Shown here: positions 18,201-21,200 of the stretch, in pieces
Numbering within the stretch: position 1 is the stretch's first letter
Layout: each line of letters starts with the position of its first letter
NCBI RefSeq assembly: GCF_054482595.1
Contig: NZ_CM137008.1
DNA length: 64,000 bases
Strand: one strand, 5' to 3'
Position numbers: made by a program

Positions 18201-21200
18201 TATGGTCGTCACTCCTGCAACGGCTCCGGCCATTTTGGTTTTTCCATCCATAATTGCAGCATCAAGTTCGTTTTTGCCATCATGAGTAAAGACAGCGCCT
18301 TTTCCAGCATTGAAGAGGGGAGAGTCCTCCATAACATTAATTGCACGCTGAACAGCATCAAGGCTACTTCCTCCACTATTAAGCACAGCATACCCAGCAT
18401 TTAGTGCATCTGTTAACTTTTCTCTGTATTGTTTTTCTTGTTCAGGTGTAATAGTATCTTTTGTTATGGTGCCAGCTCCACCATGAATTACAAGGCGTAT
18501 TGGCGTTTGAGATTCAGCGTGAGCATATCCTATACACAATGCGAAGGCTGCCATTACTGTTATACCTTTTATTTTATTCATAACTCCTCCTTTTGTCTGA
18601 AGTTTATACAATATAAATATTTAAACTTTTTCCATTATGTTTATTTGACTTCTATCAAAAAAAATTATGCTAATTCGATTTTGCAAAATTTAATTGCACG
18701 CAAATAATATGCACATATTTTTTAGTGTAATGAGTGACTTTTATGGATAGGTTCCCGCTGACCTCTATCACCATACTTCCCCCCGCTTTCAGTAGGACAT
18801 CCGTGTCTGACTTTATATCGAGATTTCATGTGGAAGAGATAAATGCCGGACCTTGAGAAAGAAATATAACTCCCCAGTCTCGTTGAACCCTCTTGTTGAT
18901 CCACTTTTCAAGTACGTAACGATCCAAGTTCCGCCTGCCGTCCAAGGCGTTTGGTGAAGCAGCACGGTCCGTCACTGTCAGCCCACAACTTCCGCTCCCA
19001 CGGGCGCGCCACCGCGCTCTTCTTCTCATTCACCTTCTGTTTCAGTTTGCTCTCCACGAACGCCCTGATGTCCTTCAGCAGATGGTCGCCCGCTTTCCGG
19101 CTGCTTACGTAGATGTTGCAGTCGTCTGCGTAGCGGCAGAAGCTGTGTCCACGATGGCGCTTAACTGCTGCGCTATCGCCTGCTGGATAAGCCTGTCCAC
19201 CACCGTCGGGATGCCTAAGGTTCTCACGCCGCCATCCGGCTTCGGGATATCCATCCGGCGTATTGCCCGCGGCTGGTAGTTTCCGTCAATCAATACCTGC
19301 CATACGCTGCGCCAGTTCTTCTTCAGCCACGGTTTCAACTCCGCCACACCTTTGTTTTCCACCACGCGCTGATAAGCCAGCATCAGGTTTTCTCTCGTTA
19401 TCACCGCTTCCATCGTCAGCGGCACTTCCGCTTTCGTTTGCCCACCCGCCGCCGTGCTGATTTCAGCGCCATCATGCAGCCCTGACGGATACTGTCCGTC
19501 TCCTCTGCCGCTGGCCGCAGTTGCCTGCGCGTGTGCTTCATTAATCATCATCGGGTTCGGATGTCCTAATCACAGTTAATCATGTTCGGCCCTTCATGCT
19601 GCCGGTTTTGCAGCACTACTACGGCGTCGGCTGACTTCTGCCGCCCCATCCCGGCGCCTCACGGCACCGGTAGCACACTGGCAGGGCGACAGATCTCCCG
19701 GGGTAATTCACGCGACTTTCCTGCTTATGCCTGTCGGCTTTACGTCACAGCGTTCCGTGTGAGTATCGGGCTTTGGTGATTTGTGCCACCTTACCCTGCT
19801 GCGCCGCCTTAACCGCTTCCTGTTCGTCAGGCCAGCATTTTGCATCCGGCTTCCTTCAGATTTCACCTCGCGATGAACACCCTTGCCTTCCGCTAACACT
19901 TCCCCTCACCGGGTGTGTGGAGGACTTTCACCTCTTAGTCGTTCTTCAGCCACCACAGTTGAAGAACAGCGCCAGTCACGGCGCTACGCGCCATGCCCGG
20001 CGCACATATGCAACGAGCGCCGATGTAAACGGCACCCGTAATATTTTAGCTGCAGGGCACGCCGTACTTGCCTGTAAAGAGATGGTGCAGTCAGGCCTTT
20101 TGTTTAAGCAGGAGCCCACCGAAATGATTCCGGCAATAGCCTGATTAGCAGGAATCCACATCCTTCTGGGCGTGGAGGATGACAATCTAAAACAAGTTAA
20201 TAAAAAATACCGATAATCGCAGAGTGAAAAACAAAACCAACTATCAGGGGTAAAGCAGTGCGTTTTACCACTTCGAAGGGAGTTATATTTGCTCCACTGG
20301 AAACCGCTATAACCACGCCAGATACGGGAGACATCGCACGCCCCATATGGGAAGCCTGCTGCATAGGCAGGATCATCGATATGGCATTCACGCCCATGCT
20401 GGCAGCGATTTGTGGTATCAGTTCAACAAAAGCCAGAAATGGCGCATTGCCCGATCCCATAATGACAGCTGCAGCCAGTGTAACCAGAGCAAAAACGATG
20501 CCCATCGCAAAAGGGGGTAACCCAACGTGCTCTGCCATCAAAATTAATTGATCTATCGCGCCAATGCTTTTAATCCCATGAGCAAACACACCTGCGGCCA
20601 CCAGTAAGCCCACCACGCCGGTAAATGCTGTCCCCATTCCTTTCAGGAAATGGGTAAACCCGTCACATACAGCTTTCAGATCACATTTACGGACCCATTC
20701 GATCAGCATGCAAATTGCCATTGAGATAAGAACAATCGTAATGATATTGAGATTAATTCCGGTGACAAAAATCTCCGATGAGCCAACGGCCATCAGGATC
20801 GGTAGCATAGGTAGCAGAGCATAATAAGCCGGCGTACTGCCTGCTTTTATGACCGTTGTCGTACCAATTTCATGAGGTAATGTTCCAGCTTTACGATCAC
20901 AGTGTTTCTGCCAGAAAAAGTGGCTGATACCGACAATCAGAACAGTCGCCAGAGCAGCAGGCCCCTGATGATAGACAACATACTCCACCACATCCATATT
21001 TACCGCTTCAGAGCCTCGTATGGCGTCAATGGCTGTCGGTGTGTACGCCACACCAAGAGAGGTGGCAATTACCCCTGCGGCAGACGCTGCTGACAGCCCG
21101 AGTCCGAGCATAATAGGAAACATGGTTCCCATCAGTAAAACAGCAAGTCCGGTAGCTGAGGGGATAGCCAGTTGAAGAAGACTGGCGAAAAGATAAGAGA

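Follow-up and report, generated by a model that had tools for sequence, protein, structure and literature searches.

A class C group II intron of the E.c.I6 type, reduced to a truncated relic between dcuC and an asparaginase gene

The E.c.I6 family and the published fragment

Group II introns of class C (IIC) are inserted behind terminator-like inverted repeats, and the proteins that they encode (intron-encoded proteins, IEPs) lack an endonuclease (En) domain (PMC1702495, PMC4424553). B.h.I1 and O.i.I1 belong to this class, and the E.c.I6 type has in common with them insertion after a stem-loop or terminator, a small ribozyme, a CGC triad and an IEP without En (PMC1702495, PMC4424553); B.h.I1 and O.i.I1 are complete and splicing-competent, whereas the element described below is a 5′ fragment. 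The group II introns of 90 Enterobacteriales genomes were catalogued by Leclercq and Cordaux in 2012 (PLoS One 7:e52268; PMC3522654). Table S2 of that catalogue classes E.c.I6 as 'C' in CFT073, ED1a, APEC_O1 and S88, with a disrupted ORF, and Tables S2/S3 list E.c.I6-tr1 in E. coli SMS-3-5 (NC_010498 1127307-1127474/1127497-1128304).

We analysed a window of 64 kb (contig NZ_CM137008.1, assembly GCF_054482595.1), in which a preliminary description had placed a decayed group II intron at 18720-20005, next to an asparaginase gene. An intron is present, but it occupies only 18987-20005 (Table 1). The annotated interval is too long because intron homology ends at 18987; its lower part, 18720-18986, is unrelated mobile-element debris (IS66 tnpB and a baseplate gene) and is not intron. 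We conclude that 18987..20005 on the minus strand is almost certainly an inert relic of an E.c.I6-type class C intron, unable to splice or move. The points that could be raised against this conclusion were minor caveats, and none of them contradicts it.

As an intact reference for the family we used the 1,919-nt copy on the UPEC132 plasmid NZ_CP040454 (23153-25071; locus L002:3004-4922), which ends in ...CUCGAU and gives the same D1-D4 matches as the window plus an RF00029 match with a CGC triad. Its IEP (WP_021515390.1, ltrA) is 462 aa long, with RVT_1 at aa 110-316 and GIIM at aa 332-410, and it scores 413 bits against TIGR04416. Judged from its sequence, the UPEC132 plasmid intron may be active. 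The window copy is 95% identical to it over the shared 1,061 nt and has the same D1-D3 ribozyme domains, but the uninterrupted RT and maturase ORF, domain V (DV, with CGC) and domain VI (DVI) of the plasmid copy are all missing from the window. E.c.I6 of CFT073 (selC island, NC_004431 4320108-4321914) belongs to the same family (95-96% identity; 95.8% and 94.6% over the two segments retained in the window), has the same 5′ motif and also lies after a terminator-like stem-loop. Unlike the window copy, which is without the 3′ 530 nt, the CFT073 intron is full length with DV/DVI; it has a 21-nt 5′ deletion of its own and a deletion of about 80 nt in the ORF that splits the IEP. A further E.c.I6-type intron of full length, whose ltrA contains an internal stop, was seen between bcsB and bcsZ on pEC012-2 (NZ_CP119579.2; 3002-5008 of the retrieved locus, L003); only 6 nt separate its end from the left-end hairpin of an IS200 copy.

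The naming rule used in PMC3522654 (Zbase) requires more than 90% nucleotide identity to a named reference, which the window fragment exceeds. The fragment is class C and E.c.I6, its clade placement being taken from the table in PMC3522654. The absence of an endonuclease (HNH/En) domain from the IEP can be read in the intact 462-aa relative only, the C-terminus of the window copy having been deleted.

The alignment to known E. coli group II introns that the preliminary description had proposed as a check was run, and it led to E.c.I6 and, within it, to the published E.c.I6-tr1. The SMS-3-5 locus was 99.9% identical to window 18500-20300 over 1,801 nt, with no gap. The two share the locus, the flanks, the internal deletion and the truncation, and the gene order is the same (DUF5339, asparaginase, pseudogene, 'maturase', TnpB fragment, dcuC, pepT). 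They differ in that the window has an IS1 downstream of the asparaginase gene, with collinearity ending at 17194. The published pieces of 168 bp and 808 bp correspond to 18987-19154 and 19177-19984. Their sum, the published size of 976 bp (168 + 808), is smaller than the 1,019 nt that we measured against the intact copy because 21 nt near the 5′ end are missing from the CFT073 reference and because the repeat overlap was scored differently. The fragment was thus already catalogued in 2012; it has no novelty and is ordinary genomic debris.

Table 1. Features of the intron fragment and its flanks (window coordinates)
Feature	Position	Strand	Description
Whole intron fragment	18987..20005	-	1,019 nt; nt 1-893 plus nt 1222-1389 of the 1,919-nt E.c.I6-type intron
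Ribozyme 5′ part (D1-D3 and 5′ side of D4)	19552..20005	-	Rfam matches; starts with GTGCGCC at 20005
Truncated IEP ORF, 148 aa	19105..19551	-	N-terminal extension and N-terminal part of RT domain; ends in a frameshifted tail and stop
24-nt in-frame deletion site	19349..19350	-	8 aa (AAGVDNLS) lost from RT N-terminal region; alignment columns 662-685 and tblastn
346-nt internal deletion junction	19138..19154	-	Two imperfect 17-nt direct repeats merged into one copy, TCGTGGACA(A/C)AGCTTCT
Out-of-frame RT segment	about 18987..19153	-	IEP aa 257-312 with YADD (RYADD) active-site motif, frame -2; ends at 3′ truncation
IS66-family tnpB fragment, 45 nt	18945..18989	-	Mid-gene piece joined to the truncated intron; many E. 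coli records have a tnpB that matches at 93% identity; tblastn aa 57-73
'Baseplate protein' pseudogene, 213 nt	18731..18943	-	C-terminal part; frameshift and internal stop
IS609-like (IS200/IS605 family) remnant	20006..20186	+	Last 45 tnpB codons (20007-20144) and right end; intron 5′ exon in antisense
5′-exon stem-loop	20013..20039	-	Ends 7 nt upstream of insertion point; DNA fold -8.1 kcal/mol, z=-2.4

The junctions and the spacer between dcuC and the asparaginase gene

BLAST against the intact UPEC132 copy resolved the fragment into two segments, 20005-19138, which corresponds to intron nt 1-893 at 94.7% identity, and 19154-18987, which corresponds to intron nt 1222-1389 at 97.0% identity; nothing in the window aligned to that copy past intron nt 1389. 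The GTGCGCC-type motif that had been noticed on the minus strand proved to be the true 5′ end of the intron. The junction reads ...GCATAT/GTGCGCCGGGCATGG... on the minus strand (slash at the junction), the intron side beginning with GTGCG, whose first G is position 20005.

The 5′ exon is an IS609-like element, to whose tnpB the intron is antisense. The remnant at 20006..20186 showed 84% identity to K-12 IS609 insQ and its end, right up to the exact intron junction, and tblastn assigned it to insQ aa 358-402. The orphan right end of the element abuts the dcuC stop codon. In IS200/IS605-family elements, the region around the tnpB end encodes the omega RNA, the guide of TnpB. A permissive Rfam scan of 17000-21000 gave no match of the IS609 tail to an IS200/IS605-associated RNA family.

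Insertion shortly downstream of a terminator-like stem-loop was found at the window locus and also in three independent copies of full length, those of the UPEC132 plasmid, pEC012-2 and CFT073. In these three copies, whose flanks are otherwise unrelated, the stem-loop lies 7-10 nt upstream of GTGCG and is followed by a T-rich run (z=-6 to -9). Among the four stem-loops, that of the window is the weakest (z=-2.4); it includes G-T pairs and, because of this weakness, a canonical class C origin of the insertion is something that we infer for this locus.

At the other end, the intron runs directly into the IS66 tnpB piece, beyond which lies the pseudogene of a baseplate gene whose source is E. coli phage-plasmids of about 90-100 kb; the latter showed 87% nucleotide identity to NZ_CP073955.1 and, by tblastn, encodes aa 134-204 in two frames with a stop. 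We considered whether the IS66 piece could be a homing site of E.c.I3, an intron that targets IS679, and rejected this, since the junction lies inside the IEP ORF and is not a splice site. Only 45 nt from the middle of tnpB are present, and the intron is E.c.I6 (class C), which also speak against such a site.

Although the fragment is inert as an intron, one could envision that the relic has been co-opted, either as a structured leader or spacer that affects read-through from dcuC into the asparaginase gene or as a functional 148-aa RT stub. The fragment does lie on the same strand as these two genes and between them, no minus-strand terminator-like site was found in 18400-20400, and the arrangement is kept in about 219 genomes at ≥99% identity. 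However, this conservation is not above that of the flanking island and is therefore uninformative about selection. A promoter-like site at 18731-18704 lies directly upstream of the asparaginase gene, and the ORF was found by tblastn to contain no catalytic RT motif in frame. Furthermore, other strains have IS1 or IS903B insertions in the spacer and the plasmid p399-2 has a different indel state, which together indicate that the spacer tolerates disruption. We think, then, that co-option is very unlikely. Much the same holds for the broader idea that the relic is not neutral and that either its D1-D3 RNA, carried in a putative dcuC-asparaginase read-through transcript, or the IS609 tail with its omega RNA region might influence the flanking genes of aspartate and asparagine utilisation, to which we would give very little weight.

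The ribozyme and the reverse-transcriptase ORF

When the whole window was scanned against Rfam with gathering thresholds, RF02001 (group-II-D1D4-3) matched 19708-19877 on the minus strand with 140.2 bits (E=6e-29), and RF01998 (group-II-D1D4-1) matched 19589-19673 on the same strand with 71.9 bits (E=6e-11). Both matches cover the full model length and are far above chance. A multiple alignment showed that 19552..20005 has almost the same sequence as the full-length copies, so that D1-D3 look intact. The fragment thus has the GUGYG start and the domain I-IV structure of a group II intron, and the D1-D4 matches, together with 95-97% DNA identity to group II introns, bear out the decayed bacterial intron that had been recognised at this locus.

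It might be argued from these well-kept domains, which are nearly unchanged with respect to the full-length copies and yield full-length Rfam D1-D4 scores, that the element can still fold and splice even though it is immobile, only part of its ORF having been lost. We regard this as extremely improbable. The covariance search for DV and DVI that had been suggested was carried out, and RF00029 (Intron_gpII), which scores 48-50 bits in the full-length relatives, where the domain V triad is CGC, gave no match in the window at the gathering threshold and none in 17000-21000 at E≤10 with permissive filters. The extra matches of the permissive scan of 17000-21000 were at chance level (ceN108, mir-15 and isrF; E=5-7). 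Intron homology stops at nt 1389, inside the ORF, and the missing 3′ 530 nt (nt 1390-1919) are nowhere in the window, where a BLAST search at word size 7 and E≤10 returned only chance 12-17-mers. The fragment has neither DV, nor DVI with its branch A, nor the 3′ AY splice site. Domain V is indispensable for catalysis (PMC4424553). With no DV, no DVI and no 3′ splice site, the fragment cannot splice. The earlier remark that the intron may still fold is correct for D1-D3, which alone are able to form, whereas a catalytically competent fold is excluded without domain V. The element is a fragment of a group II intron and not a functional member of the group.

The preliminary description had also read an RT N-terminus at 19105..19551. 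This assignment was confirmed, since the 148-aa ORF matched TIGR04416 group_II_RT_mat (E=2.4e-22; aa 54-137 to profile positions 2-93) and, by tblastn in frame -3, showed 90% protein identity to aa 1-145 of the intact 462-aa LtrA. The Pfam RVT_1 score was sub-threshold (18 bits against a cut-off of 29.6), and because Pfam alone fell short, the NCBIfam model and the DNA identity were needed to settle the RT class. The possibility that the ORF comes from a retron, from a DRT/Abi defence RT or from another non-intron RT deserves next to no credence, for although the protein of the full-length relative weakly matches retron and Drt models, it does so below threshold, as any RT would, with scores far under the cut-offs, while the window ORF matches TIGR04416 only, its DNA shares 95-97% identity with introns that have all of D1-D6 and encode an RVT_1/GIIM protein, and bona fide D1-D4 RNA precedes it. 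Two observations had been named beforehand as jointly fatal to the intron assignment, namely that no DV/DVI structure is detectable and that the RT is of another class; the first holds and the second fails, the RT region having 95% nucleotide identity to full-length group II introns with DV/DVI.

Compared with the intact 1,919-nt relative and its 462-aa protein, the ORF bears three lesions, a 24-nt in-frame deletion, a 346-nt deletion and the truncation at nt 1389. The 24-nt deletion is common to the window and the p399-2 copy. At the 346-nt deletion, the two BLAST segments overlap at the 17-nt repeat, which intact copies have twice and the window has once, and we therefore conclude that the loss of the 346 nt took place between the repeats. 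In p399-2, UPEC132 and CFT073 the two repeats and the DNA that separates them are kept. Through the deletion, IEP aa 146-256 are lost and the reading frame changes by +1. Beyond it, tblastn with the intact IEP recovered the out-of-frame RT segment (89% identity, E=8e-30), and both aa 146-256 and aa 313-462 were absent. No GIIM or X maturase domain was found in the fragment. Of the RT and maturase-like segments that had been reported in shifted frames, then, one RT segment is real (about 18987-19153, frame -2, IEP aa 257-312, with YADD) and there is no maturase segment. Domain IV does not contain an RT with X/maturase, as only aa 1-145 (minus 8 aa) remain in frame. The loss of part of the IEP had accordingly been seen correctly, although its extent was understated, because the truncation at nt 1389 of about 1919 also takes away the rest of the RT, X/maturase, D4b, DV and DVI. 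With no functional RT or maturase the fragment cannot move, in agreement with the loss of mobility that had been proposed.

RefSeq names the product of 19105-19551 'maturase' or 'reverse transcriptase family protein', and WP_001333102.1 holds the RT N-terminus only, without a maturase domain. A second minus-strand ORF, at 18908-19057 (WP_001327936.1 / WP_249439917.1), appears as 'hypothetical protein' or 'reverse transcriptase' but is chimeric, being composed of codons from the RT and from IS66 TnpB.

Order of decay, distribution and island context

The plasmid p399-2 (CP084536.1, IncFIB/IncI) carries the same island, with aspA ... dcuC, the intron fragment, asparaginase, DUF5339 and mgtC. Its intron copy shares with the window the 5′ junction, the 24-nt deletion and the nt-1389/IS66 junction, keeps the 346 nt with both repeats, and has a private 19-nt duplication. 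Because this copy is truncated and yet retains the 346 nt, the 3′ truncation is older than the repeat-mediated internal deletion that the window has in common with SMS-3-5. The p399-2 copy thus offers a small but clear example of stepwise decay, in which the truncation came first and the repeat-mediated deletion followed. On this conjugative plasmid, the island lies at 4448-9885 of the retrieved locus (L009), with the less decayed intron and an IS903B downstream. The presence of the same island on p399-2 and on the chromosome shows that it moves between the two kinds of replicon.

The history of the locus might be reconstructed as follows. An IS609-like IS200/IS605 element would have stood just downstream of dcuC, and an E.c.I6-type intron would have entered it by retrotransposition, in antisense orientation to tnpB and at a point 7 nt past the stem-loop. 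A 24-nt deletion would then have arisen in the RT N-terminal region; its place before the truncation is presumed. An illegitimate rearrangement would have cut the intron at nt 1389 and joined it to scraps of IS66 tnpB and of a phage-plasmid gene, so that the remainder of the RT was lost together with the maturase domain, D4b, DV and DVI, and with them the 3′ exon and what else there was of the IS. The last step was the 346-nt deletion between the 17-nt direct repeats, by which the central RT motifs were lost and the frame was shifted. Searches with the intron fragment and with the full-length intron did not find a dcuC/asparaginase locus with a complete intron, from which it follows that the truncation could predate the arrival of the island in E. 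coli.

Of 5,426 complete E. coli genomes searched with megablast, 1,237 contained related copies. At least 80% of the E.c.I6-type intron was present in 833 genomes, mostly as the CFT073-type copy with a split ORF, and at least 80% of 18600-20200 was present in 219 of the 5,426, in all of them at ≥99% identity. E. coli TUM1880 matches the window end to end in the intron region. Among the plasmid records of the intron family, 276 of 349 are from Escherichia, and weaker relatives occur in Pseudomonas, Providencia and others.

The surrounding island contains many aspartate, asparagine and C4-dicarboxylate genes together with IS debris (IS66, IS200/IS605, ISEc31 and IS1). Two aspartate ammonia-lyase genes (window 2775-4225 and 23627-25077) are 99.1% identical, inverted and about 19 kb apart; each adjoins an anaerobic C4-dicarboxylate transporter gene, and the pair brackets the intron-bearing segment. 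This inverted pair is a possible substrate for inversion. An IS1A copy is located at window 16481-17178, downstream of the asparaginase gene. Because collinearity with W2-5 and SMS-3-5 breaks off at 17194, the island is rearranged on its DUF5339 side in the window strain. Rfam matches to STnc490 (window 8284-8407) and isrC (14049-14171) coincide with insertion-sequence ends, the former with an IS200 left end or 5′ UTR beside a degenerate tnpA and the latter with the start of an ISEc31 (IS3-like) element, and neither looks like a free-standing sRNA gene. Three tRNA matches with the same Rfam score (72.6 bits) lie within about 4 kb, at 47651-47723, 50060-50132 and 51881-51953, two of them on the minus strand and one on the plus strand.

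The intron fragment matters little on its own. The practical outcome is a corrected annotation of WP_001333102.1, of the chimeric ORF downstream of it and of the interval 18720-18986. In a wider sense, the fragment is a further example of the pattern in Enterobacteriales, in which group II introns come on mobile DNA, are inactivated and persist as fragments.
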